Made by a program: the position numbers and the translations under genes. From Candidatus Omnitrophota bacterium (GTDB lineage: Bacteria; Omnitrophota; Omnitrophia; Omnitrophales; Aquincolibacteriaceae), in the NCBI GenBank assembly GCA_023247035.1, contig JAHFHG010000002.1, positions 12,090 through 76,089 on the forward strand: a stretch of DNA of 64,000 nucleotides, read 5' to 3'. Every line of letters begins with the position of its first letter. The first letter of the stretch is position 1. The notes beneath the pieces are model-generated. The model was given only the letters and a program-made list of their open reading frames with translations. It was not told the DNA's origin and did not search any database. Shown piece by piece: positions 20,904-36,209 of this stretch.

Positions 20904-22739
20904 TTGCCCAGCGCCCCGCCGCCTCAAGGAATCAGAATCCACAATGTGACGACGAATGTGACGGGCCGCACGCCGGTCGAGCGGATTGTCTCGGATCAAG
21001 TTTGGCAAAGCGAAATCCGGCCGGTTCTTTCCAGATTTCTTCAGGGCCCCGGAATCAAACATCACAAGGCCTTGATCGGGCAATGGATCATCGAATATGT
21101 TGGAAATGACCCGCATATGCACGAGTTTTTCGTCAAGAATTGGAAGCCGGCGCCGGCCGAAGCCTCGCCGCACATTCAAAGTTACGTTTTCACCGGGATT
21201 CAAGATCGTGAAGGGATGAAAAAGTTTCTGGGATTGAGGAGCGAGGAGGAGGTCCGTAATCACCGGGAAAATTTTTTGCGGATCATTCAAAATAATAAAA
21301 AATACCGCAGCGCGCTGCGCGATCCGAGACTCAAAGAGATCGAGAGGTATCCCGAAAACGAGCAGCTTGATATCGCGCTTTTCGCGCCCGCCACGGTCTA
21401 TGGCCCGCAGGAAAAAAGTTTTGTCAGCCTCAACACGAATTACTACGGCCAGCTCAAATCCAAGTCCTCGTTAGGGCCGCTTGAGGAATACCTGATCGAG
21501 AAAGCGCGCGTCACGCCGGAAGGAAAAATTTTGAATCCTGCGGACGTATGGCTTTCAATGCACGCGGGCTGCAGCGAATACACTGCGGAAAACGGCCAAA
21601 AACGGGGCATTGTCATTCTCGCGCCGACGGGAAGCGGAAAATCGACGCACGGCTACGGCCTGGTCGAGGCCAAAAAACGCAACCGCCTGCATTCCGACGA
21701 TTGGGTTTTTGTCAACCTCGCTTCGCGCGAAGTCATGATCTCCGAAAATCAGTTTTATATGCGCACCAATATCGCCGGCATTTACCCTCACTTAATTCCG
21801 CTGCTGGTCAATCAGCCCTTGGAAAACGCCGCCTTGAGTCCGGAAATCATCCGGCTTCTTGAGCATTTTGATTCGCCCGAAGATTTGCGTAACGCTTTCA
21901 CGGACGGCCGCGTCTCCGCTTCGGATTACCGCAAGATCAGGGAACAGATGATCGAAAATAACGCGGCCCGGGCCTTGATCGATCCGCGGCTCATGGTCGG
22001 CGCGGAAAAATTCATCGAAAAAACAGCGCTGACCGATCTCTTTTTGATGAAGAGGGATTATGACAGCCGGATGGTTTTAAAAATTCTCACGGAAGATGAA
22101 ACGATCGAGATCCTGACGTCGAAGGGAAATGTTTTTAATTATGTTTACGGAAAGTCCGACGCGGACGGCTACGGAATCCTGGAAGGCAGGACAACGGAAA
22201 TTTATTATAATCCTTATCTCTGCCAATGCGGCGTGGATGCCGAAAAAGGGAAAATCAGCGGGTTGGATAAGATCAGGATCGAAGCCTACCGCACGCTTGC
22301 GCGTCATCCGGAGATCCGCGTTTCGTGGGTCAATACGCGGCTTCCTGCGGCGCAATGCCAGTTCTGTCTCCGGCGGTTTCTGGAGGGCGGGATCGATTTT
22401 ATCCAGGTGGAAAAAGGCCGGACCGTCGAGCGGGAAATAATGGATTTGCTTCACCTGAATGAAAAGGAAAAATCGCCGCTTCCGGGGCGCAGAGAAATGG
22501 ACAGGACCGGGCTTTACGACCCCAGCGGGCAGGAGGTCGAGGTGATTGCTTTTTACTCGCAGGACAAAGCCGAAGAGGTCATTGCATTTTTTAAATCTGC
22601 GCAGGAGGGCGTAAAAAATCCGGTCGCCGGATATTTAAGCCGCCCTTTTGCGGAGGCTTCGTTTCGCGTGGAACTCCCAGAAACATTTTTCAAAAAATAC
22701 GCGCGCTTAGGCGTCGGCGAATTGCTTGGGAAGAATTAG
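20904..22739 (+). CDS. Hypothetical 611-aa P-loop protein with an HprK/PEPCK-like kinase core
   Basis: GIVILAPTGSGKSTHGYGL...RLHSDDWVFV resembles the HprK Walker A plus its downstream DD motif. Confidence 0.5.
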   Translation: MPSAPPPQGIRIHNVTTNVTGRTPVERIVSDQVWQSEIRPVLSRFLQGPGIKHHKALIGQWIIEYVGNDPHMHEFFVKNWKPAPAEASPHIQSYVFTGIQDREGMKKFLGLRSEEEVRNHRENFLRIIQNNKKYRSALRDPRLKEIERYPENEQLDIALFAPATVYGPQEKSFVSLNTNYYGQLKSKSSLGPLEEYLIEKARVTPEGKILNPADVWLSMHAGCSEYTAENGQKRGIVILAPTGSGKSTHGYGLVEAKKRNRLHSDDWVFVNLASREVMISENQFYMRTNIAGIYPHLIPLLVNQPLENAALSPEIIRLLEHFDSPEDLRNAFTDGRVSASDYRKIREQMIENNAARALIDPRLMVGAEKFIEKTALTDLFLMKRDYDSRMVLKILTEDETIEILTSKGNVFNYVYGKSDADGYGILEGRTTEIYYNPYLCQCGVDAEKGKISGLDKIRIEAYRTLARHPEIRVSWVNTRLPAAQCQFCLRRFLEGGIDFIQVEKGRTVEREIMDLLHLNEKEKSPLPGRREMDRTGLYDPSGQEVEVIAFYSQDKAEEVIAFFKSAQEGVKNPVAGYLSRPFAEASFRVELPETFFKKYARLGVGELLGKN

Positions 22740-22745
22740 CCCGCC

Positions 22746-24158
22746 ATGAATGAAAATTTCCACGCGGTTTTGATTGCCGGCACGCATTCCAGCGCCGGCA
22801 AGACCACCTGGTCGCTCGCTTTAATGGCGCTGGCCCGGAAAAAAGGACTCACGGTGCAGCCCTTTAAGGCGGGCCCGGATTACATCGATCCGGGTTTCCA
22901 TCATGAAATTTGCTCTCCGCGGCGTTCAAGAAACCTCGACCTCTTTTTCCTTTCAAAAGAAAAAATATCCGAGAGTTTTCATAACCGCTCTCGGGATACC
23001 GGCCTCGCGATTGTGGAAGGAGTCATGGGACTTTATGACGGCAAAGGGCCGAGCGGTACCGAAGGAAGCAGCGCGGAACTGGCGAAGATTTTGAGGCTTC
23101 CGGTTCTGTTAGTGATCGACGGCTCGAAAATGGCCGGGAGCGCGGCGGCATTGGTTTCAGGATTTAAAAATTTTGATCCCGCAGTTCATTTGGCCGGTGT
23201 TTTGATCAATCGCGTGCGGCCGGGGCATTTCCATTTGCTCAAGCGGGCGATTGAACTTTCGACGGGGCTCCCGTGTCTTGGATTCCTGCCCGAGGAGGAA
23301 GCCTTTTCGATTCCCGAGAGGCATTTAGGATTGACCCCCGCCGCTGAGACGCAAAATTGGAAAGTGAAAATCGACCGGGCCGCCTCTTTTCTTGAAAAGA
23401 ATTTGGATTGGGATGCTTTCCTCCGGATTTCCACGATTCCAAGACCGCCTGCGCAAGCTCAGCCTAAGGAGAAGGTTGAAAGGAATAAGTCTTCCCAAGA
23501 ACCGGTTAAGATCGGCGTGGCGCGTGACGCCGCTTTTTCCTTTTATTATGAAGACAACTTGGATCTCCTCAACGAGCAGGGAGCGGAGATTCTTTTCTTT
23601 TCTCCCCTTAAGGATCCTGTTTTGCCCGAAGGCTTGGATTTCCTTTATCTGGGAGGCGGATTCCCTGAAATTTACGCCCAGGAGCTCGCCAAGAATGAAT
23701 CGATGATAAAATCCGTCCGGGATTTTTACGCCCGGGGCGGTTTTATTTACGGCGAATGCGGCGGGCTTATTTATTTGGCGGAGGCTTTCTGCGATTCAGA
23801 CGGAACGGAATATCCTTTATTGAAATTGCTGCCGGGAAAAATCGCGATGACCCGCCGGTTGCAGAATTTCGGATACCATGAAATAAAAACGCAAACCGAT
23901 ACTTTCCTATTTTCCAAAAATACGGCGCTTCGATCTCATGAATTCCATTATTCGATTTGGAATCAGGAAGGAAACGCCTCTCCGGCGTATCAGATCGGAG
24001 ACCGGCCGGAAGGTTTTGCGTCCGGGCGGATTTTTGCAAGTTATCAGCACTTGCATTTTGGTTTGGATTCCCGGATTTTAGCCCGGCTGTTTGAAAGTTT
24101 AAAGGCTTCCCAAGATCTTAATCGCGGCAAACAAATAAAAAAGGAGGAAAAACAATGA
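22746..24158 (+). CDS. cbiA: Cobyrinate a,c-diamide synthase (CbiA/CobB)
   Basis: N-terminus AVLIAGTHSSAGKTT and a C-terminal GATase1 domain with a conserved Cys (GECGG). Confidence 0.85.
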   Translation: MNENFHAVLIAGTHSSAGKTTWSLALMALARKKGLTVQPFKAGPDYIDPGFHHEICSPRRSRNLDLFFLSKEKISESFHNRSRDTGLAIVEGVMGLYDGKGPSGTEGSSAELAKILRLPVLLVIDGSKMAGSAAALVSGFKNFDPAVHLAGVLINRVRPGHFHLLKRAIELSTGLPCLGFLPEEEAFSIPERHLGLTPAAETQNWKVKIDRAASFLEKNLDWDAFLRISTIPRPPAQAQPKEKVERNKSSQEPVKIGVARDAAFSFYYEDNLDLLNEQGAEILFFSPLKDPVLPEGLDFLYLGGGFPEIYAQELAKNESMIKSVRDFYARGGFIYGECGGLIYLAEAFCDSDGTEYPLLKLLPGKIAMTRRLQNFGYHEIKTQTDTFLFSKNTALRSHEFHYSIWNQEGNASPAYQIGDRPEGFASGRIFASYQHLHFGLDSRILARLFESLKASQDLNRGKQIKKEEKQ

Positions 24159-24505
24159 AATCAAAACAGACGAAGGCGGTTTTCATTGCGCTGGTTTTGT
24201 CCCTCGGATTTATTTCTAACTTTCCGCTTGCGGCGCAGGCGGCGGGGGAGGGAACGACGGGGGATTATTTCGTCGATATCGGAACGAAGTTCGGCAGGGG
24301 CCTTTGGAACACGGTTTCAAGTCCGGCCGAGATCCCCTGCACGATCACGGCGGATATTCAAAATCAGGGGGGCGTCGGATTTTTCAGCGGTTTTGGAAAG
24401 GGAATCTTGTTTATGCTGCGCCGCATTCTTGTCGGAGTCACCGAAGTCGGCACGTTTATCATTCCGATGGGCGCGACGATTCCTGCTGTTTGCAGTTCGA
24501 AATAA
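24155..24505 (+). CDS. Small exported hypothetical protein
   Basis: Signal peptide MKSKQTKAVFIALVLSLGFISNFPLAAQA. Sits between cbiA and cobQ. Confidence 0.4.
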   Translation: MKSKQTKAVFIALVLSLGFISNFPLAAQAAGEGTTGDYFVDIGTKFGRGLWNTVSSPAEIPCTITADIQNQGGVGFFSGFGKGILFMLRRILVGVTEVGTFIIPMGATIPAVCSSK

Positions 24506-26118: not shown

Positions 26119-26529
26119 ATGCCGACGAAAAAAGACGCTTACCTGATTATCGCGCACGGGACCCGGGATCCGGAAGGCCGGCGCGCCTTCGGGGAATTTC
26201 TCGGAAAATTCCGGGCGGCTTATCCGCACCGGCATATCCAGGGCGCATTTTTAAGTATGGGCGAACCGACGGTCCCTCAAGCCGTTGAGCGCTGCGTCCA
26301 GGAAGGGGCCCGGCAAATTTTCGTCATTCCTCTTTTGTTTTTTTCCGGCCGGCACGCAAAGGAAGATATCCCCCGCCGCATTCAGGAGGCGAAAAGCACT
26401 TACCCCGAGATTGACTTTCATTATGCGAGTCCGCTCGCCGAAAATCCCAAGTTGTTTTCACTCTTGGAAGAAAAGATGAAGACCTTAACACAAGGTAAGA
26501 TGAAAGGCAAATGCACCAACGCGGTATAA
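26119..26529 (+). CDS. cbiX: Sirohydrochlorin cobaltochelatase, short form (CbiX-like)
   Basis: AYLIIAHGTRDPEGR ... FVIPLLFFSGRHAKEDI. Confidence 0.7.
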   Translation: MPTKKDAYLIIAHGTRDPEGRRAFGEFLGKFRAAYPHRHIQGAFLSMGEPTVPQAVERCVQEGARQIFVIPLLFFSGRHAKEDIPRRIQEAKSTYPEIDFHYASPLAENPKLFSLLEEKMKTLTQGKMKGKCTNAV

Positions 26530-26559
26530 AGCGATGAGTTCAACCGCTGGAGGTGCAAG

Positions 26560-27106
26560 ATGGAGTATTCAAACCCTTGAGAGGAAAATGTTGGATGAAG
26601 ACCTGGAGTTTTTAGAAGCTTTGAGGACGTTCGGTCTATGGGATCAGTTTTGGAGGAACTGAGAGAAAAGGATGAAGTCGGTAGAGGGTTTGAAGAGCGT
26701 TCCCGGGATCGGGAAATTCTTCGCGATGCCCATACGCCACGAGATTGAGGGCATCGATTGATTTCAGACATCCGATAAGCTTTGTGCTTATGCAGGATGG
26801 GTCTCCTCGACTTGCGGCATCATCAAGCAAGGGAATAAATGCTTACGGTGTGCGCTTATTGAAGCGGTGATTCCGGCCATTAGAGTCGATGCGCAGTTTA
26901 GAAGTTATTACGAATCCATGAAGGTGAAGAAAGGCGCCAACGCAGCGAAGGCGGCGACAGCAAGAAGACTGCTGAGAATCATTTGCCGGATTTGGAAAGA
27001 GAAAAGATTGTATCGAACACAATCACTTAATGGACCGCTCTCCTCACCTCCTAAAGGTCCCGGATTTATGGGGAGCGTTCTTGGACATAGGTTAGAGGAT
27101 CCGTGA
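26560..27106 (+). mobile_element. IS110-family transposase remnant: C-terminal Transposase_20 region only, with at least one frameshift; the DEDD N-terminal domain is absent
   Basis: LKSVPGIGKFFAMPIRHEIEGID then, after a frameshift, FQTSDKLCAYAGW...GANAAKAATARRLLRIICRIWKE; typical IS110/IS116/IS902 C-terminus. Confidence 0.6.
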
Positions 27107-27247
27107 ATCGGATTTTACGATGTGCGGCGCTGATGCGGGCACGAATAGAAGGATGATCAGCTTTTATGAGGGGATCAAAGCAACAAAAGCCAATGCAGCC
27201 CCTTAAAAAATAATCTTGCATTTGGCTTTCATAGAAGGAGACAAGGC

Positions 27248-27442
27248 ATGAGCGAATCGAAAAAACCAAAATATGAACCTCCGAAAGTTTACCGCGTTGT
27301 GCTGAACCACGATCAGGCGATCCTTTCGGGCTGCTCCACAGGGACGACGAGTATTTCCAACACGACCGGCGCGAATTGTAATACCAGCTGCCGCCGAAGC
27401 ACGTCCACCGCGACCAGTTCCAACTCATCGGCTTCCTCGTAA
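27248..27442 (+). CDS. Candidate RiPP precursor peptide (64 aa; leader MSESKKPKYEPPKVYRVVLNHDQAIL, core rich in Ser/Thr/Asn/Gly with 3 Cys)
   Basis: AAGGAG Shine-Dalgarno 7 nt upstream. Stop lies 8 nt before the kinase gene. Low-complexity STNC core. Confidence 0.5.
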   Translation: MSESKKPKYEPPKVYRVVLNHDQAILSGCSTGTTSISNTTGANCNTSCRRSTSTATSSNSSASS

Positions 27443-27450
27443 AACCGGCG

Positions 27451-28326
27451 ATGCGGAATAAACGCTTTGAGATCGCCAATATTCCGTTTAGTTTCCTTCA
27501 CGATTCCTTTCATATTACCGACTGGCCGAACCCTTTTTATTTCCCGTTTCAAACTCAGAAGCCCGAGTTGATCAGGATACAAACCCGCCGCCTGAGAAAT
27601 ATTCCCTCCCGCGCTTCTTTTTCTGACCTGCGCTTCGACGGCGGTGCGCATTGGCGCCTTTTCGAGAATCACGGGCAATTCGAAGTCCATCTTTTCGATC
27701 CCAAAACCAAAGCGCACGACCGGACGGCGCGTATCTCGCCTGATTTTACGGAAGTGGAGCTGATCCATTGGAAAAAGTCTCATTTCCTGAACTGGATCCT
27801 GCGTCCGCTTGCCGAGATTCTGCTCGTCCATTATCTTGCGTCCCGGGAAGGTTTGCTGGTTCACGCAGCGGCGGTGCGGGACGGCGATCAGGCCTATCTT
27901 TTCGTGGGCCGCTCCGGCGCCGGAAAAACCACGATTTCAACGTTTTGGGCCGGCGTCGAGGGCGACGTTTCTGTTTTGGGAGACGAGCGGCTCGTGGTGC
28001 GGCGCGAGGCCGGCGAATGGTTTGCGTACGGCACTCCCTGGCCGGGAATGGGTTTCCGCTGCAACAATGAACGCGTGCGGATCAGCCGCGTTTTTTTTAT
28101 CCGCCACGGGAGTGAGCATGAAATCATCGAGCAGGGTCCCGCCCTTTATTTTAATGAATTGTTCACGCAGGTTTTTTCCTCTTTTTGGAACCTTGAGGCG
28201 CTCGATCAAATCACGCGGACTTGCCAGAAAGCTGTGGAGGAAATTCCCTGCCGCCTGCTGGCCTTCGCGAAAGCGCCGGATGTGACCGGGTTTGTCAGGA
28301 ATTTTAACTGCGCCGCGCAGCCTTAA
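27451..28326 (+). CDS. HprK-related P-loop serine kinase-like protein
   Basis: AYLFVGRSGAGKTTIS...VLGDERLVV parallels the HprK C-terminal kinase core (Walker A plus acidic motif). Confidence 0.6.
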   Translation: MRNKRFEIANIPFSFLHDSFHITDWPNPFYFPFQTQKPELIRIQTRRLRNIPSRASFSDLRFDGGAHWRLFENHGQFEVHLFDPKTKAHDRTARISPDFTEVELIHWKKSHFLNWILRPLAEILLVHYLASREGLLVHAAAVRDGDQAYLFVGRSGAGKTTISTFWAGVEGDVSVLGDERLVVRREAGEWFAYGTPWPGMGFRCNNERVRISRVFFIRHGSEHEIIEQGPALYFNELFTQVFSSFWNLEALDQITRTCQKAVEEIPCRLLAFAKAPDVTGFVRNFNCAAQP

Positions 28327-28334
28327 ATCCGCTT

Positions 28335-29378
28335 ATGGAAAATTTGCCGCAGGTTTCCGTTCATGAGTTCAATGACCGTCTCCGCGCCCGCGCAAAAGAG
28401 CTGCGGATCCCGTTTCAGGCCTCGCTGGAATTGACCTATGCCTGCAACTTTCGCTGCGTCCATTGTTTTAATCCGCACCACGAATCGAAGGACGACCTTG
28501 GAACCGAATTTTGGAAATCCGTTCTTGGCCAGCTTGCCGGCGAGGGCTGTCTCGTCGCGCTTTTTACCGGCGGCGAGCCGCTCGTGCGCAAAGATCTTTT
28601 TGATCTGCTCGCTCACGCCCGCAATTTGGGAATGCAGTGTATTCTCAACACCAACGGCCTTCTGCTCGATCCGGAAAAAATCCAGAGGCTCGAGGAATCG
28701 GGTCTGACCTTGCTGGCGGTTTCCGTTTTCGGGATGAGCGTTCAAAGTTACGAATCGGTGACCCGCATCCCCGGATCGTTCGCGCGCTTTTTGCTCCACG
28801 TGGAGCAGCTCAGGCGGTCCCGAATCCCGCTCCTTTTTAAAATGCCGGTGATGCAAATGAATTACCAGGAAGTGGAATACGCCAAGGATTGGTTTTCAAG
28901 CCGGGGACTTCTCCTCAAACACACTTCGGAGATCCAGCCTCGCGCGGACGGCGATCCGGAACCTTTGCAGCACCGTATTTCAAGCGCCCAAGCAGCGGAT
29001 TTGAGATTCCGTTACGAAGAAGATTTAGGATGCGGAAAACGAAGCCCCCGGAAAGATGAATTTTTTGATTGCCAATGCGGGAAAAGCGCGGTCGCCATTA
29101 CCCCGCGCGGCGAAATGAATCTGTGCGTCTCTTTCCATTATCCGCGCCACTCGCTTTTAAAAGGAAGTGTCCGGGAGGGCTGGAAAAGGCTTGTGGATTT
29201 TGCGGCAGATTTCAAACCCTCCGAAAAATACGAGTGCCCGGGCTGCCGGTTGTCTCCTTACTGCTCGCGCGGCGCAATGGATTCGTGGCTGAATACGGGC
29301 GATTTCAATCCGTGCGTCCCTTACTTTAAGGAAGTCGCAGGCCGGATTGAAGGCGCCCTGAAAAAAAGGAGTGAATGA
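28335..29378 (+). CDS. Radical SAM enzyme with a C-terminal SPASM domain (peptide-modifying maturase class)
   Basis: TYACNFRCVHCFN (CxxxCxxC) near the N-terminus. C-terminal CQCG...CPGCRLSPYC auxiliary-cluster Cys pattern. Confidence 0.8.
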   Translation: MENLPQVSVHEFNDRLRARAKELRIPFQASLELTYACNFRCVHCFNPHHESKDDLGTEFWKSVLGQLAGEGCLVALFTGGEPLVRKDLFDLLAHARNLGMQCILNTNGLLLDPEKIQRLEESGLTLLAVSVFGMSVQSYESVTRIPGSFARFLLHVEQLRRSRIPLLFKMPVMQMNYQEVEYAKDWFSSRGLLLKHTSEIQPRADGDPEPLQHRISSAQAADLRFRYEEDLGCGKRSPRKDEFFDCQCGKSAVAITPRGEMNLCVSFHYPRHSLLKGSVREGWKRLVDFAADFKPSEKYECPGCRLSPYCSRGAMDSWLNTGDFNPCVPYFKEVAGRIEGALKKRSE

Positions 29379-29385
29379 AGAAAGT

Positions 29386-29850
29386 TTAGGGCGGGCTTCC
29401 GGAATGCAATCGCCTTAAAATCCGCGAAGGCGCGTCGAGAAACCAGGGATTGGTCGGTGAAAGGAGGGCCTGCCAAAAGCGAAGAAGGAACGGCCGTTTT
29501 TCCAGGTCGAAAATTTTTTCTCCTCTTTGAACCTGCGTGATCTTTCCCACCAGCGGAGAAATTCCGGCGCGTCCTTTGAAGAAAGGGACAAAACAGGTGT
29601 TCGCATGAAAATTTTCACCGGATATTTTTCTCACCGCGACATCGCCGAATCGAAGGCTCGATTCGTCTGTTTTCTTGATCGTAACGAGGTCGCCCCGGCG
29701 CACCACCGGCCACATGCAATTTCCAAAGAGTTTCATTTGAACGGAGCCGGAAAATTCCAATTCCGAAAGAAGAATCGAGGCCTGCAGGGGTTGGGAAAGG
29801 GCCTTTTCTTCAAGAGGCGGATTAAGGGACGGCACGGCCAAATTTAGCAC
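29386..29850 (-). CDS. S24/S26-like (LexA/signal-peptidase fold) peptidase with Cys in place of the nucleophile Ser
   Basis: GNCMWPVVRRGDLVTIKK ... FGDVAVRKI mirrors G(D/N)SMxP...GDlvlV...GDivVaK of S24 peptidases. Convergent with the rSAM gene, gap 8 nt. Confidence 0.5.
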   Translation of the reverse strand: MLNLAVPSLNPPLEEKALSQPLQASILLSELEFSGSVQMKLFGNCMWPVVRRGDLVTIKKTDESSLRFGDVAVRKISGENFHANTCFVPFFKGRAGISPLVGKITQVQRGEKIFDLEKRPFLLRFWQALLSPTNPWFLDAPSRILRRLHSGSPP

Positions 29851-30020
29851 GGCGGAGCCGGCTTCCGCAACGGATCTTTTGCCTTCGCCGGATTTTCAAT
29901 TCTTTCTAACATTCAGGATCATTTTCAGTCTTCGGCTCAAAAGCGCATTCTGCGCATTTGATCTTACAAAACGAACCGCTATAATTAATGAAACACGGGC
30001 GGCAGGAAATCGAACCCTTC

Positions 30021-33000
30021 ATGAAAACCATCTCTTTATTCCAGAAACCCAGCGCGATTTTTTTAATCTTTTCTTTAAGCCTTTCCCAAAGTCCCTCGTA
30101 TGCCGCTGCCGCGCCGGCGCCTCCGCTGGCGGTTTCTGAGCGCTCCCGGGCGCTTCTTTTTCTTCCCGAAGAACTTGGCGAGATCGAAGAATCCTTTCAG
30201 GGATCGAACGGAAAAACCGTGATCTTCATTCAAGACGCCCACGATTCCCTCGAAGCGCAGGAAAATATCGCCAAGACTATTCAATACCTGGTGGACAAGT
30301 ACGGGGTGAAGACTGTTTTTGAAGAAGGCTATGAAGGTCCTGTTCCCACGGATGATTATTTCGGCTTCATCAAAGATCCGTCCGTCAAAGAGAAAGTTTC
30401 TTACTTTTTATTAGATAAACTCCGCCTCGGCGGCGCGGAATACGCACACATCAACCGCTTTCACAACTTGTCATTCCCGCACGCGTTAAGCGGGAATCCA
30501 AATTTTAGGTCCCCGATAGAAACATTCGGGGACGACAAAAAACGTGTCGATTTCAAACTGATTGGGGCAGACAATATAAAGTTACATCTTGAGAATATCG
30601 ATTGGTATCGCCAGAATGCCAAGCATAAAGAAGAAACTGGAAGAGATTTGACTATTCTGCAAAATGAAATCGACAAACTTGCCAACCGGTATTTTCCTAA
30701 GGAACTCAAAGAATGGATGAAGCTTAAGAAAAGGTTTGATGAGAAACAAATTGATCTTTTGGATTATTTAAAGCGGACAATACAAGTCCCTCATCGAGAA
30801 TCCATAGACCATAAACTTTACCCCAATCTTTCGCTTCTCCTTCAAGCAGAACACACTCAAGACAAAGAAGTCCTAGAGAAAGTGAAAACCATTGAAGCCA
30901 AGATTCTTTTCGAGGAAATCGATTCGTTGGAAAACGCCGCCGCCGGCCCATTCCTACAAAATGGAACAGACCGGAAAATCTTCCAATATTACAAAGGAAT
31001 AAATCTTCTCAAAAGACTCAACGAGATTGAGATTACGCCCGCTGAATATGAGGCGGTCAAAGCGCAGCTTCAACATCTCAGCACCCAGGAACTGGCCCAA
31101 TTTATTGTCCAGCAAACGAATAAATCCATCGTCCTTTCCAAACGATGGGAGGAAAATATTGAAAGCGCCATTCGGTTTTATCAAATCTCACGAGCCAGAG
31201 ATTCTGCGATTGCCGAGCGACTGAATGATTTTCTTAAAAATCATGATGAAAAAGTGGCTGTCCTTGTCTTTGGAGGATTTCATAAAGAGAGGATTACAGA
31301 ATTGTTGAGAAAGAAAGGACTCCCTTACTATATAGTTTCTCCTCGAATAATGAACGTCGACAATAAGCATAAGGAACTCTACGCGCATTTAATGACAAAG
31401 GGATATTCGCTTTTCCCCGTTGCGGCAAATGTTGCTAAGGCAGCGCGTTTAGCAGGAGAGATCGAGCTCGCGGAAATGGGCGGCCAGAACGCAAAGTCAG
31501 AACTCCGAGCGTACCATGCGGCAATCACTAACATTGTTTCTTCATTGGTCTCCAATCGACCCAATCAAACATCTCGAGAACTGCTCGATCGTTTGATTAA
31601 CGGACGATTGATACACGAAGTTCTAAAAGTATCCAAACAAGCAATGGGAAAACGCCGATCCGAACTAAGAAGTAAAGAATCGGATTTTGCTTTAAGAGAA
31701 AAACGCCGTGATTATCTCAAGCGGCTAATGAATCAAGAAAATAAGCAATGGACGTTGGATGAGTTAGCAAACGCTACAGGTCAATCAACAGGACAGATTG
31801 TTAAGGATTTGCGATATTTGAATCTTTTTAAGCCCTCAAATCACCTAAATTTAGATGCCGAACGCATAGACCGAAGAAGACAGTGGGGATTACCAGATTA
31901 TTCTGACCTCGATAAGCTTTTACCTCGCTTGGATGAAGAATTTGCATATCTTCATGGAGAGGCTCTTTTTAATTTTTTAGCTCAAAAAGGCCGCGAGAAT
32001 GACCCCGTAAGCATGGAAGCGGCTATTTACGGCTTCTATAAATTTGTTGGAGAAAAAACCCCCGGTAATATTTCAGAACGAGGGCGATTGCTTGGTGAAC
32101 GCATTTATCACTATCTGAGGTTAAGAGAAAGTATGCCTTCTGACGGCCTGCGTCGAAATCCAGATGTTGAGTTCGATATTGGTATGGCAGAAAAAAGGAA
32201 GCGGGAGTCACGGCTTCCAAAATTTGGAAATATAAAAACAAGGAGGCCGAAGAAGAAAGTTTCTTTTTCGGAAGCACAGCAAATTATGGAAGAAAAAAAT
32301 TTACATTTAGATCAATCAATCGCATTCGTTGCGTTGTCCACGGCAGAAAATGAAACTTTATTTCGAGCGCTTAAATCAAGCGAATTGGAAGAGTCCGAGC
32401 GAAGACAAATTTATGATTATTTGATTCAGAAGCATGTAGGGTTTGTCGGCTGGTGGATCAAACATAAGATGCCGCCTTGGTATTTTGAACATTTTAACTT
32501 CGAAGAACTTTTAGCTTTTGGCCAAATTGGCCTTATGAAAACGATTGAAAGATATGATTTCAAAATGGGGCGGCGCTTTACCAGTTATGCCGAATGGTGG
32601 ATTCGCCATTCTATCCAACGCTCCATAGAGAAAAAAACACATAAATCTTTAAATGTCAGGCGTGATGAGGATAGCCCGGAGTGGATTGATACTTTGTCGG
32701 ATTCAAAAGATCAATCGGAAGAAGAATTATGGCCGGAACTATTTTCCAGTCTTAGGCATCTCGATAGTCGGTCTCGCATTATGTTGAGCTTGCGTTACGG
32801 GATTGGATCAGTAAGAACATACAATCTTCGAGAAATTGGCTTAATGTTTGGTGTAACTCACGAGCGTGTTAGACAAATTACAGAAAGAGCAGTTGAAAAG
32901 TTAAAACGCTTGGTTGGAAAAGTAACGGTTGATGATTCTTCTCAAGACCATACCGATGTTTTTTTATTCGAGGCTATGGAGTTAGAGCCAGAGAATCCAC

Positions 33001-36000
33001 TTTTCAAGCCACTAAGCCATCTCGGAGTTAAAAAGCTTGACCGGATTCGAGAAGTTCTTTCAAAAGAAAATCGCTTCAACTCGGAAATGCTGATGAGGAT
33101 TTTTAGGTCACGCGGCCAGTATGTGATAGCTCCATCGAAATATTTATGGGGTCTGCCTGCGGGTTTGCTTGAAACCGGCGGTGACACTTCCCATCATTTT
33201 GGATCGTGGAATGAAGAAGGTGGAAGACATAACATAGATTTACAAAAACCCAAAAAGATTCATTTTTCCAACGCACTCACAACCACAACCGAAATCATAA
33301 AAAGGTATCCTTATGCTCGGTATCTACTGCCTCCTGAAGAACAACTATTGCTGGCCTCTCAGGCTCAAGGAGAAAGGAGCCGATTCTATGCTTTGGGTAA
33401 GACATTGCAGTGGATTGGACTTTCTCCGCAAGATTTTATTATTTGGCTTGTTGAAAATAAAAAATATTTAGATCAAGAAATCGTTGATTTTATCGCACAA
33501 TCACCACTTTCTAAACGTCCTCGATACGAGCTAACGGCATCCCGCACAGGTGAGCATCTTCATGGGTCTTTACCAAGACCACGTACTGACCGAAAGATTG
33601 CAACGAAATGGATTTCAACTGAAGAAACCAGCTACACGCTAATCACACCTGCTGAATTGGCGGACCGCTTCCCTTCTGCCGAACCCTTCTTGGATAAACT
33701 CGAACCTCAATTACTTCTTGAGGCGGATTCGTCCGAGCATGATGAAATTAAATACTATTCTTTTGTTGAAGATGGACATCATACAAAAATTCTAATAAGG
33801 ATCAATAAAAGAACCGGCGAAATCCAAAGTCCTCATGATGGCCCAATCGGTTTTAGAAAGGAAATTTTGGATTTTGTAAGAAAAGGTGAGTTTGGCAATA
33901 AGCAAAAGCCTCCTGTTACCGCGCCTTTTGAAATGCACGCCGGATCACGGCATTTTATTTATTTCGGAACGATGGGGAAAGGTTCCATTGGCTTGAGTAT
34001 GAAGGGAGTGAAACCTAACACGCGTGTATCAGGAAGCGCTGTTCATTTGGAGCATGCTCCTCTTGGAATGGGGCCGCAATGGCTTTTAAGACTCACTGTT
34101 CATTTGAAAAGACCAAGAGTTGTTTATGCGAGATTCAAACGCTCTGGAACCCGCTTAGGTTTATTTAAAAAATCCCCTCAAACTTATATCGGAGCTTTTG
34201 TCAAACTTGGGAAATGGAATCAGGAAAAAATCCAGCCATTCCCTGAAAATGAAATCGAAATTACCGCGAGTTCCAAAGGACGTTTGGAACTTGGAAGCAA
34301 TGGCGATGGAGAGCGGATTGTTATTCACTTACCACTTTTACCCAAAGATCATAAAGTTTTAATTCGAAAAGTCCGCAATCAAGAAGATGGACAACAGCTC
34401 TTGGTCGTTCATACCCGCAATCCTGCTTATCGATATAGAAAATTTTATTATCGATTCACGAATCGTGGCTATCACACCCGAAGATACCACGAGGAAGTAA
34501 AGGACATAAGTCCCACGGCTAGAAGGAAGCTTAGCTATGAAGAAATTGCAAAGGCACAAGAAGATTTGAGAAGCCGAGAAGGAGCAGAGGCAAACTTATG
34601 GCGCGATCCCGAAAAGATTGCTTATGAGCTTGACCTATTCGACGCTTATTATCTTGTTTCGGAAGTTCAAAGAATAAACGCTTCTTTAGTTGCTCAAGAC
34701 ACAGCTAATTTGCCGCCTCTCGAAATAGACACCTCAAAGATTGTTGAGCTGCCGACTCCGGCTTACGATCAAGTAGGAGACGTTTATCATGCTGTTCCAG
34801 AATCTTCTGAGCGACCGGAGAAATCCGAGAAACCAGTCAAACCTAAACCATTATCCCCTTTAAGACTTGCTCAAAAAAGATTGGAAGAAGCTGAAAAAAA
34901 AACATTAGCTGAACGTTTGAAGGTTGGCTTTCGAGATGTGGGAGAAAGCGGTCGGTTTTTAGATTTGGGCGCAGGAAAGGGTGATTTAACCGCTGAACTT
35001 GCTGGACAATTTCAAGGTGGGGTTGCAGTCGAAATAAATGAAGATCGAGTCGAGCAGCTACGGCAGAGAAAAATTCCAAATCTTAATATTTGGGACATGG
35101 ATTTTTTTGATTATATGGAGATGGCGATTAAAGGGAATCAGCTTTTTGATGCGATTCTCATTTCACATGCTCTTTTATTCATTAAATTTGATCGCCGGGA
35201 CGCTTTCTTAAAAGATGTTCTATCAAGACTTAAGCCGAATGGAAAATTAGCGATTATTTTAAATGGCAGTAAAATTGAAGAGAGAAACCAAGTTCAGTTG
35301 CGAGCAAAGCTCATGAGAAAGCATGAGGCGCTAGCAGGAGACAACCCATCAACCAATATTGAAAGCAAACTGCGACAAATCGGCTATGGGGTACAAACCG
35401 AAAGAGTCAGAATCATTCATGAGACTCCTTCCAGAGACGAAATGATTTCTATTGTAAAAGCAATATTGCCACGCGAAGACCGTTTTCGTCTGTCGAATAT
35501 CACTGGATTTGTCGATTCAGTCCTGAAATTACCTGGAGAAGAAAAGTACCGCCTCTATGTTGATCAAGATATTTTATGGATAACACATCCTCGTTCTGAG
35601 GTTAGAAAGCAAGAAAATGTATTTGCAATGGTGTCTGTCAACGATTGGCAAAACTTTAATCGAACTAATCAGAATACCGAGGCTACGGCCACCAAAGCCG
35701 TCGTTTTTATAGATGGTTCCGTCGATAGCAAAGATGCCAAGCAGCGGGCGGAAGAATTAGCGGTGCTGGCCGCAGGTAATCCGAACCGAACGATTGTGGT
35801 TTATAATGCGGACAAAGTTTTTAAAAATAAAGGCGGTGAAATGGCGGAACTTTTAAAGTCGTTTGGTCTCGCCAATGTCAAGTTCGCTGCGGGTGAGTTG
35901 TCCGAAGCCCTCAAGCCCTACCAATTCCGGGATCAAGTTGATTTGGTGCACTACTCGGCAAGCGAAGAGGAGGCTGTTTTTGTTCAAGCCTCCGTTGGGA

Positions 36001-36209
36001 AATGGCTGGCGCAAAAACTGACCCGATTTGTCGGAGGGCCCGGCGCCTTAGGATACGGAATAAAATATTTGCAGGCTGTGAAATTGGGCAAGCCTGTGGA
36101 AGGTATCACGCCCGAGAACGGCTACTACGCCGTTTCCCCAGGCGCTTCGGAGTGGATGCGAAGCCTTTATCGAGCTCGGTTCGCGACCGTTTTCGCTCAA
36201 GCGGCGTGA
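30021..36209 (+). CDS. Giant multidomain protein (about 2060 aa): signal-peptide-like N-terminus, TraB/GumN/TIKI-like domain, sigma-70 region 2 plus region 4 module, central unknown region, class I SAM-methyltransferase motif, unknown C-terminus
   Basis: Uninterrupted 6.2 kb frame in AT-rich DNA. Motifs IFIQDAHDS...VLVFGGFHKERITELLRKKGLPYYIV; GQIGLMKTIERYDFKMGRRFTSYAEWWIRHSIQRSI; LREIGLMFGVTHERVRQITERAVEKL; FLDLGAGKGDLT. Confidence 0.7.
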   Translation: MKTISLFQKPSAIFLIFSLSLSQSPSYAAAAPAPPLAVSERSRALLFLPEELGEIEESFQGSNGKTVIFIQDAHDSLEAQENIAKTIQYLVDKYGVKTVFEEGYEGPVPTDDYFGFIKDPSVKEKVSYFLLDKLRLGGAEYAHINRFHNLSFPHALSGNPNFRSPIETFGDDKKRVDFKLIGADNIKLHLENIDWYRQNAKHKEETGRDLTILQNEIDKLANRYFPKELKEWMKLKKRFDEKQIDLLDYLKRTIQVPHRESIDHKLYPNLSLLLQAEHTQDKEVLEKVKTIEAKILFEEIDSLENAAAGPFLQNGTDRKIFQYYKGINLLKRLNEIEITPAEYEAVKAQLQHLSTQELAQFIVQQTNKSIVLSKRWEENIESAIRFYQISRARDSAIAERLNDFLKNHDEKVAVLVFGGFHKERITELLRKKGLPYYIVSPRIMNVDNKHKELYAHLMTKGYSLFPVAANVAKAARLAGEIELAEMGGQNAKSELRAYHAAITNIVSSLVSNRPNQTSRELLDRLINGRLIHEVLKVSKQAMGKRRSELRSKESDFALREKRRDYLKRLMNQENKQWTLDELANATGQSTGQIVKDLRYLNLFKPSNHLNLDAERIDRRRQWGLPDYSDLDKLLPRLDEEFAYLHGEALFNFLAQKGRENDPVSMEAAIYGFYKFVGEKTPGNISERGRLLGERIYHYLRLRESMPSDGLRRNPDVEFDIGMAEKRKRESRLPKFGNIKTRRPKKKVSFSEAQQIMEEKNLHLDQSIAFVALSTAENETLFRALKSSELEESERRQIYDYLIQKHVGFVGWWIKHKMPPWYFEHFNFEELLAFGQIGLMKTIERYDFKMGRRFTSYAEWWIRHSIQRSIEKKTHKSLNVRRDEDSPEWIDTLSDSKDQSEEELWPELFSSLRHLDSRSRIMLSLRYGIGSVRTYNLREIGLMFGVTHERVRQITERAVEKLKRLVGKVTVDDSSQDHTDVFLFEAMELEPENPLFKPLSHLGVKKLDRIREVLSKENRFNSEMLMRIFRSRGQYVIAPSKYLWGLPAGLLETGGDTSHHFGSWNEEGGRHNIDLQKPKKIHFSNALTTTTEIIKRYPYARYLLPPEEQLLLASQAQGERSRFYALGKTLQWIGLSPQDFIIWLVENKKYLDQEIVDFIAQSPLSKRPRYELTASRTGEHLHGSLPRPRTDRKIATKWISTEETSYTLITPAELADRFPSAEPFLDKLEPQLLLEADSSEHDEIKYYSFVEDGHHTKILIRINKRTGEIQSPHDGPIGFRKEILDFVRKGEFGNKQKPPVTAPFEMHAGSRHFIYFGTMGKGSIGLSMKGVKPNTRVSGSAVHLEHAPLGMGPQWLLRLTVHLKRPRVVYARFKRSGTRLGLFKKSPQTYIGAFVKLGKWNQEKIQPFPENEIEITASSKGRLELGSNGDGERIVIHLPLLPKDHKVLIRKVRNQEDGQQLLVVHTRNPAYRYRKFYYRFTNRGYHTRRYHEEVKDISPTARRKLSYEEIAKAQEDLRSREGAEANLWRDPEKIAYELDLFDAYYLVSEVQRINASLVAQDTANLPPLEIDTSKIVELPTPAYDQVGDVYHAVPESSERPEKSEKPVKPKPLSPLRLAQKRLEEAEKKTLAERLKVGFRDVGESGRFLDLGAGKGDLTAELAGQFQGGVAVEINEDRVEQLRQRKIPNLNIWDMDFFDYMEMAIKGNQLFDAILISHALLFIKFDRRDAFLKDVLSRLKPNGKLAIILNGSKIEERNQVQLRAKLMRKHEALAGDNPSTNIESKLRQIGYGVQTERVRIIHETPSRDEMISIVKAILPREDRFRLSNITGFVDSVLKLPGEEKYRLYVDQDILWITHPRSEVRKQENVFAMVSVNDWQNFNRTNQNTEATATKAVVFIDGSVDSKDAKQRAEELAVLAAGNPNRTIVVYNADKVFKNKGGEMAELLKSFGLANVKFAAGELSEALKPYQFRDQVDLVHYSASEEEAVFVQASVGKWLAQKLTRFVGGPGALGYGIKYLQAVKLGKPVEGITPENGYYAVSPGASEWMRSLYRARFATVFAQAA
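30470..30536. repeat. Second copy of the double-hairpin unit, located inside the coding sequence of the giant ORF (read through in frame)
   Basis: TTGTCATTCCCGC...GCGGGAATCC...GTCCCCGATAGAAACATTCGGGGACGAC aligns with 14389-14445. Confidence 0.5.

Follow-up and report, generated by a model that had tools for sequence, protein, structure and literature searches.

The short open reading frame (ORF) at positions 27248-27442 of the forward strand, in the 64-kb stretch of contig JAHFHG010000002.1 from a Candidatus Omnitrophota bacterium analysed here (hereafter the window), is a genuine conserved protein-coding gene. We propose, with a probability of roughly 0.75, that it encodes the precursor of an uncharacterised maturation cassette of the kind that yields RiPPs (ribosomally synthesised peptides that are modified post-translationally), the window carrying a reduced copy of this cassette. 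Across loci, the components are the peptide, the HprK-like protein ScmC, one to three radical S-adenosylmethionine (rSAM)/SPASM enzymes, PqqD-type proteins and an S26/SEC11-like peptidase. The original prediction, which had read the ORF as a precursor-like peptide, finds support for its main claim.

The peptide ORF is a conserved protein-coding gene

The encoded peptide, MSESKKPKYEPPKVYRVVLNHDQAILSGCSTGTTSISNTTGANCNTSCRRSTSTATSSNSSASS, agrees exactly with the 64-residue ORF and with the leader and core strings of the original prediction, whereas its cysteines are C29 (27332-27334), C44 (27377-27379) and C48 (27389-27391), and not residues 29, 45 and 49 as had been stated there. The putative leader covers approximately residues 1-26 (27248-27325), with Y9-x-x-P12, L19, A24 and L26, and the putative core approximately residues 27-64 (27326-27439), in which C29, C44, C48 and the C-terminal residue S64 (27437-27439) are all invariant. 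More than 20 serines and threonines had been claimed for the last 36 residues; 21 were counted, and no other of the 443 six-frame ORF segments in the window with 60 amino acids (aa) or more is as extreme, the per-segment maxima having a mean of 6.9 and a 95th percentile of 12. A Shine-Dalgarno-like GAAGGAG precedes the start codon (Table 1), and the gaps from the peptide gene to the ScmC gene and from the latter to the gene of the rSAM/SPASM enzyme, hereafter rSAM3, are both 8 nucleotides (nt), with all three genes in the same orientation. No sigma-70-like promoter was detected in 26500-29950, terminator-like sites are no more frequent than in shuffled sequence, and the window gave no match when scanned against Rfam and for tRNAs.

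The coding nature of the ORF is evident from the comparison with its relatives. In a search of 5.8 billion protein sequences, seven proteins matched the peptide, namely its own exact sequence and six homologues of 64-69 aa with 55-76% identity (E-values of 1.8e-17 to 3.5e-12), which have in common the invariant block YE.PK..RVVLNHDQAILSGCST, the three invariant cysteines and an invariant C-terminal S..A.S. Pairwise codon comparisons among seven loci gave synonymous differences (pS) of 0.60-0.93, a saturated level, and non-synonymous differences (pN) of 0.16-0.48, with a dN/dS of 0.10-0.41 where computable, and the variable columns of the 23-codon conserved block are distributed 7/4/18 over codon positions 1/2/3. 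At Ser30 the codon differs among relatives (TCC, AGC, TCA and TCG), only the amino acid being preserved. Over a wider range, the peptide frame is conserved across phyla at 27% to 76% identity.

The original prediction had also pointed to an overlapping reverse-strand ORF (27313-27864) without a recognisable domain, which indeed exists and matches no Pfam or NCBIfam family. It could be argued that the peptide ORF is spurious, the real gene being either this minus-strand ORF or, if the region is non-coding, only ScmC, with the region as its leader: the minus-strand ORF is the longer of the two, its frame equals the sense frame on codon usage, and several gene callers left the peptide uncalled. 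On a codon-usage score trained on the long genes of the window, the peptide reaches -0.002 bits per codon, between the in-frame mean of 0.24 and the wrong-frame mean of -0.22. By the same scoring, the antisense frame of the ScmC gene is level with its sense frame; the method is thus undecided between frames, and the question of strand was therefore put to the comparative evidence. There, the minus-strand frame is broken by 3-13 stops in three of the six relatives (L001, L002 and L007), while the peptide frame is kept across phyla with its synonymous sites saturated. About 75% of the minus-strand ORF lies antisense to the ScmC gene, itself conserved at E = 1e-73 to 1e-95, and we therefore reject it as a shadow ORF of that gene, which makes the dismissal of the peptide extremely improbable. 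The original prediction was to fall if the minus-strand ORF proved to be the conserved one, or the region non-coding in relatives; on examination, the minus-strand ORF is not the conserved frame and the region is coding in relatives.

Signature of the peptide family

Across 24 diverse aligned peptides, M1, Y9, P12, L19, L26, C29, C44, C48 and the C-terminal serine are invariant. A profile search returned at least 872 peptide clusters at 90% identity, none of them named or carrying a Pfam domain. The signature statistics were taken from the best 120 of these 872 matches, in which the C-terminal serine and the motif Y..P.{6}L.{6}L..C are each found in 120/120 and exactly three cysteines in 116/120. 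When 1.84 billion representatives were searched exhaustively with HMMER, using the close-clade profile only, 156 matches were obtained; among the 146 inspected, 127 end in serine and 117 have three cysteines, most of the exceptions appearing truncated or frame-shifted. The family comprises 'long' members (33 sequences), with an extra CR (arginine after the third cysteine in 30/33) and a tail of 12-16 residues, and 'short' members (87 sequences), which follow Y.KP....v.L.P.EAVLG.CKt....GP....C.....Cs..gS. The richness in serine and threonine is limited to the clade of the window, the Nitrospirae-type and short-type members being rich in glycine and alanine; the stretches between the cysteines are highly variable, and among the serines and threonines only the terminal serine is invariant.

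The window peptide and seven diverse members of the family matched nothing in Pfam or NCBIfam, and no family of either collection matched any peptide of the family. In the open-access literature, no paper was found on ScmC-type cassettes, on the SynChlorMet cassette or on their substrate: for HprK-type peptide kinases only lasso-peptide papers were retrieved, 'ScmC' returned unrelated acronyms only, and the radical-SAM RiPP compendium papers examined mention neither kinases nor Scm. The peptide gene was left uncalled by the source assemblies in L005 (798-989), L007 (8801-9001) and L008 (8798-8998), the uncalled contigs including one identical to the window, and one JGI contig has a 43-aa antisense ORF called in its place. 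Since gene callers skip the peptide in several contigs, the family is under-annotated in public data.

The cassette and its enzymes

Every close relative with enough flanking DNA (L001, L002, L007, which is the L010 contig, L008, L013, L015, L056, L057 and a JGI contig) has an eight-gene, same-strand cassette in the order PqqD-TPR-PqqD-rSAM1-rSAM2-peptide-ScmC-rSAM3. The peptide gene is directly beside ScmC in L001, L002, L007, L008, L013, L015, L056 and L057, and near it in L011, L012, L014, L016, L021 and the short-type loci. Its adjacency to maturase genes is seen in at least 13 independent loci; a short, co-oriented, maturase-adjacent and conserved ORF is what is generically expected of a RiPP precursor gene. 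In the more distant loci L020, L025, L028 and L029, a 'short' cassette has the order PqqD-rSAM-peptide-ScmC-S26-like peptidase. The relatives have one or two PqqD proteins per locus, with best scores against lasso-peptide PqqD chaperone models. The window copy consists of peptide-ScmC-rSAM3 and the peptidase only, and all four ORFs are intact.

The ScmC-like protein combines the HprK/PEPCK fold with a Walker-A P-loop and a downstream acidic catalytic motif, its invariant residues being G153-x-S155-x-x-G158-K159-T160-T161, L176, D178-E179-R180, H138 and D144, with G156 and G177 nearly invariant. The fold assignment comes from a fold search, a PDB sequence-profile search with ScmC having returned P-loop-level matches only, and the matches to HprK-related kinase models are weak (E about 0.007-0.01). 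PF27840 'ScmC' is assigned to the window protein and to nearly all of 120 listed homologues, as a precomputed annotation in which the score was not part of the assignment seen. Elsewhere in the window, a 611-aa ORF (20904-22739, forward strand), directly upstream of two ORFs read as putative cobalamin-amidation genes, has a Walker-A-like APTGSGKST followed by an HSDDW motif. It was considered as a second ScmC-like kinase and rejected, its similarity to ScmC being non-significant (E=0.11), and it has no Pfam match at E<=0.001 and no PDB sequence match at E<=1.

The rSAM3 protein has both the CxxxCxxC motif (C37/C41/C44) and the SPASM seven-cysteine motif (C-terminal cysteines 246, 248, 264, 301, 304, 310 and 327) that characterise sactipeptide and ranthipeptide maturases, and retains every cluster-binding cysteine and all orthologue-invariant residues (alignment A4). 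It is devoid of a fused N-terminal recognition domain, only ~30 residues preceding the first cysteine motif. Its best PDB relatives are SkfB (top), PqqE, BlsE, CteB and SuiB, and it matches many NCBIfam rSAM/SPASM families, all below their cutoffs, with 51.8-61.6 bits against the curated maturase families (SkfB, AlbA, StsB and PapB), for which the cutoffs are 300-850. Its orthologue among the rSAMs of the relatives is the third one (467 bits vs 161 and 131 for the other two).

The peptidase is a divergent homologue with weak matches to archaeal signal peptidase I (E=6e-4), Peptidase_S24 and SEC11, and its whole-protein scores are under the cutoffs (19.6 vs 51.85 bits and 13.3 vs 23.3 bits). 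The ORF is also among the called genes of an independent contig. Peptidase homologues are found within ~1 kb of ScmC in 29 fetched loci, which indicates that the peptidase belongs to the system, and ~27 other cassette-linked homologues retain the G-x-S-M-x-P motif of the nucleophile serine. A cysteine-type motif (GNCMWP or GMCMAP) occurs in three loci, namely the window, L007:160-573 and L011:8174-8512; the L007 protein is 40% identical to the window copy and adjoins a full cassette. The window protein is a candidate leader peptidase, and the change from serine to cysteine may represent either a nucleophile switch or an inactive paralogue.

Proposed maturation of the peptide

Leader binding, cysteine chemistry, phosphorylation site and leader cleavage are steps that we infer as follows. 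Lasso precursors have a YxxPxL leader motif that is bound by PqqD (PMC10368454), which the Y..P motif of the peptide family resembles. By analogy, the N-terminal ~26 residues (Y-x-x-P-x-hydrophobic ... L ... A-x-L) would serve as a leader, which PqqD would bind and present to the enzymes. The rSAM/SPASM enzyme or enzymes would crosslink the three invariant cysteines, most likely as thioethers, an expectation drawn from the SkfB- and PapB-type relatives. In lasso systems, HprK-homologue kinases phosphorylate the C-terminal serine of linear precursors (PMC8498205; PMC10368454), of which they recognise little else (PMC8498205); in the same way, ScmC with ATP would phosphorylate a serine, most probably the invariant C-terminal one. 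The S26-like peptidase would remove the leader.

A more specific proposal, which we regard as possible and somewhat short of even odds, is that of a new RiPP class or peptide-derived cofactor in which rSAM/SPASM enzymes crosslink the three cysteines and the HprK-fold kinase phosphorylates the C-terminal serine, and in which, for the larger cassettes, the phosphoserine would be decorated with sugar and the arginase-like TPR protein would modify arginine. If true, radical crosslinking together with HprK-type phosphorylation would be a combination not previously described, and the proposal would define what is made by the long-orphaned SynChlorMet-type cassettes, which are widespread in Acidobacteriota, Nitrospirota, Elusimicrobia and relatives.

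Relation to known systems

The nearest curated system is SynChlorMet (ScmC TIGR04249, ScmD TIGR04248, ScmE TIGR04250 and ScmF TIGR04251; Pfam PF27840), with which the cassette shares the component types, i.e. an HprK-like ScmC, PqqD-family proteins and PqqE-like rSAM/SPASM enzymes, as well as the PF27840 ScmC domain on the window protein and its relatives. It differs by its three rSAMs, two PqqDs, TPR protein and S26-like peptidase, and its proteins stay below the equivalog cutoffs: the window ScmC has 17.1 bits (E=0.0027) vs 125 for TIGR04249, and the L002 orthologue has no TIGR04249 match at 1e-5; the window rSAM has 52 and 54.7 bits against ScmE/ScmF, with a cutoff of 400, and no rSAM of L002 or L029 exceeds 88; the PqqD2 of a relative has 46 bits vs a ScmD cutoff of 100.

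The phosphorylated lasso peptides (paeninodin; the kinases PadeK, ThcoK, SyanK and BsfK) are similar in that a gene of HPr-kinase fold stands beside a short precursor with a Y-x-x-P-x-L/V leader and an invariant C-terminal serine, and in the PqqD-type proteins of the relatives; the NTP_transf_5 and sugar genes of the relatives also recall the phosphoglycosylated pseudomycoidin. However, rSAM/SPASM enzymes and three invariant cysteines take the place of the cyclase and B2 protease, neither an asparagine-synthetase-like lasso cyclase nor a transglutaminase-like B2 protease appearing in the gene calls or Pfam annotations of the window and of eight flanked relatives, and the reading of the peptide as a lasso peptide was rejected on that account. 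With the sactipeptide and ranthipeptide systems (SkfB, AlbA, StsB, CteB and PapB), the cassette has in common the CxxxCxxC plus seven auxiliary-cluster cysteines and a cysteine-containing core; SkfB is the best solved-structure match, and the StsB, AlbA, SkfB and PapB models remain below cutoff. It differs from them by the missing fused recognition domain, a discrete PqqD, the kinase and the S26-like peptidase. The systems of pyrroloquinoline quinone (PQQ; PqqA/D/E) and mycofactocin (MftA/B/C) likewise pair a small peptide with a discrete chaperone of the PqqD family and a SPASM radical-SAM enzyme, PqqE and MftC being among the best matches here, and likewise centre the modification on conserved residues at the C-terminus or close to it. 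In those systems the residues are Glu/Tyr or Val-Tyr, instead of three cysteines and a serine, the kinase and peptidase components are different, and the cassette described here is without downstream cofactor-processing genes.

From these sequence comparisons, the system would work like a hybrid of the phosphorylated lasso peptides, in its kinase, leader motif and terminal serine, and the sactipeptides or ranthipeptides, in its SPASM enzyme and cysteine core, while being a member of neither, since both the lasso cyclase and the B2 protease are missing and no maturase cutoff is reached. The peptide family supplies a candidate substrate for ScmC-type cassettes, which previously had family models (NCBIfam, Pfam) only, together with a sharp peptide signature (Y..P leader, three cysteines and terminal serine) and a recurrent S26-like peptidase partner. 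The precursor profile is of use to genome miners, as the cassette is common in hard-to-culture soil and groundwater phyla, and the kinase-plus-radical-SAM chemistry becomes directly testable by co-expression and mass spectrometry.

Alternative explanations

Several observations weigh against the proposed precursor role. For NCBIfam families of known chemistry, every protein of the cassette stays under the curated cutoff, and the 64-kb window encodes no PqqD recognition protein, a component expected of a RiPP locus. In the window peptidase, the nucleophile motif reads GNCMWP, with a cysteine in place of the family serine of S26/SEC11-type G-x-S-M-x-P and the histidine kept, and the GD....D loop is absent from both the window and the L007 peptidases. 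The lasso kinase BsfK phosphorylates Ser3 and not the C-terminal serine (PMC10368454), so that the phosphorylation site is not settled by analogy. Finally, in the four short-cassette loci compared, the single rSAM scores 197-248 bits against rSAM2, which is missing from the window, and 143-206 bits against rSAM3; the margin is modest, and the window may therefore lack the ancestral cysteine-modifying enzyme.

The original prediction implied that the whole Ser/Thr-rich tail is the substrate, which would undergo multi-site phosphorylation or O-glycosylation. The extreme composition of the tail is in line with this, as are the sugar-nucleotide operon that overlaps the rSAM3 stop codon in four relatives (L002, L007, L008 and L057), the flanking PMT_2-related and NTP_transf_5 genes, and the known capacity of lasso kinases to polyphosphorylate, one system even performing phosphoglycosylation (PMC8498205). 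We nevertheless consider a tail-wide modification unlikely: the richness in serine and threonine is confined to the clade of the window, other members being rich in glycine and alanine with only the terminal serine invariant, and the window itself is without sugar or glycosyltransferase genes. It can also be hypothesised that the peptide is the precursor of a peptide-derived redox cofactor, comparable to PQQ or mycofactocin, or of a metal-binding peptide, and not of a bioactive RiPP that is secreted; the functional chemistry would then be that of the three cysteines and the terminal serine. The discrete PqqD and PqqE-like rSAM/SPASM genes, with PqqE and the mycofactocin maturase among the best family matches, would fit such a role, and residues fixed across hundreds of clusters and several phyla are more cofactor-like than antibiotic-like. 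Yet the sequence between the cysteines is highly variable, the cassettes of L001 and L056 have ABC-2 exporters at their flanks, no conserved dependent dehydrogenase or oxidoreductase lies nearby, and a leader peptidase of signal-peptidase type better suits a released peptide; a cofactor precursor thus appears quite improbable.

The reduced copy in the window

The window holds an insertion sequence (IS)-associated truncated copy of the cassette. Neither PqqD, TPR, rSAM1 nor rSAM2 was found in the window by tblastn and hidden Markov model (HMM) searches, and between cbiX, which directly precedes it, and the peptide gene there is a decayed remnant of an IS110-family transposase, coinciding with the 5' break of the cassette, where the five genes of the close relatives are missing. 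Only the C-terminal Transposase_20 domain is recognisable (PF02371, E=1.3e-11, 45 bits vs a cutoff of 21.3 in the joined translation; NCBIfam IS110 C-terminus, E=4.6e-4); the N-terminal catalytic domain is missing, and a stop codon interrupts the frame at 26759-26761. The same arrangement is present on identical contigs from two other samples; the samples ERZ27276474 and SRR14366783 contain the contig.

The module may be either a relic or dependent on a PqqD encoded elsewhere. A serious possibility, albeit one that we would not favour, is that the IS-associated loss of the PqqD, TPR, rSAM1 and rSAM2 genes has left an evolutionary relic in this genome, which gives no mature product or only a partly modified one; the reading of the family would be unaffected. 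A relic would account for the absence, within 64 kb, of the five upstream genes that all close relatives carry and of their sugar-nucleotide, GT-C (glycosyltransferase) and NTP_transf_5 neighbours, and is in keeping with the IS110 remnant that abuts the peptide gene and with a peptidase that has neither the serine nucleophile nor the conserved loop. On the other hand, the four ORFs are intact and keep all orthologue-invariant residues, the peptide retains a good ribosome-binding site, and the arrangement recurs on the contigs of the two other samples. The short cassettes have a single rSAM with ScmC and the peptidase, so that only PqqD is formally missing and could lie outside the window, and the cysteine-type peptidase is also found in L007 beside a full cassette. 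The value of the locus lies in the family signature and the testable chemistry, and not in the functionality of the window copy.

Table 1. Features of the window discussed in the text
Feature	Position	Strand	Remarks
cbiX	26119-26529		directly precedes the IS110 remnant
Decayed IS110-family transposase remnant	26663-27103	+	between cbiX and the peptide gene
Shine-Dalgarno-like GAAGGAG	27234-27240	+	ends 7 nt before the peptide ATG; read from sequence
Precursor peptide gene (proposed)	27248-27442	+	ATG start, TAA stop, 64 codons
Overlapping minus-strand ORF (rejected as a gene)	27313-27864	-	183 aa; no family match (Pfam, NCBIfam)
ScmC-like P-loop protein	27451-28326	+	291 aa; HprK/PEPCK fold; starts 8 nt after the peptide stop
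rSAM3, radical-SAM/SPASM enzyme	28335-29378	+	347 aa; Pfam Radical_SAM E=6e-21
Divergent S26/SEC11(S24)-like peptidase homologue	29386-29850	-	154-aa ORF; convergent with the operon

Neighbouring genes

The TPR protein of the long cassettes lies outside the window (L002:4177-5664, L007:5129-6502 and orthologues), and its N-terminus resembles the FlmR/OhkR family of peptide arginases (NCBIfam NF052474, E=7.7e-10; a weak match to Pfam FlmR_OhkR_N). Arginine follows the third cysteine in 30/33 long-type peptides vs 13/87 of the short type, whose loci are without the TPR protein. Taken together, the sequence of this protein and the arginine pattern hint at a conversion of arginine to ornithine in the long-type peptides.

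The sugar-nucleotide operon overlapping the rSAM3 stop codon (L002:10169-16204, L007:10969-17633, L008:10979-17045 and L057:5329-10725) encodes an epimerase, a nucleotidyltransferase, a GHMP kinase, a dehydratase/epimerase, split transketolase-like subunits and a DegT aminotransferase. PMT_2-related proteins of ~690 aa flank the cassette in L001, L002, L007, L008, L056 and L011, and NTP_transf_5 genes in L001, L007 and L056. These neighbours suggest that the peptide of the relatives may be glycosylated or phosphoglycosylated; no sugar-nucleotide, PMT_2-related or NTP_transf_5 gene is present in the window.

Between the two large ORFs read as putative cobalamin-amidation genes, a 116-aa ORF (24155-24505, forward strand) has an N-terminus that resembles a signal peptide, and matches nothing in Pfam. 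Directly beside the cassette, on its other side, the forward-strand ORF at 29988-36209 encodes 2073 aa with an unusual fusion of domains, namely a weak ChaN/Tiki-like haem-binding domain (aa ~350-435), sigma-70 regions 2 and 4 (aa ~836-973) and a SAM-dependent methyltransferase (aa ~1652-1760).

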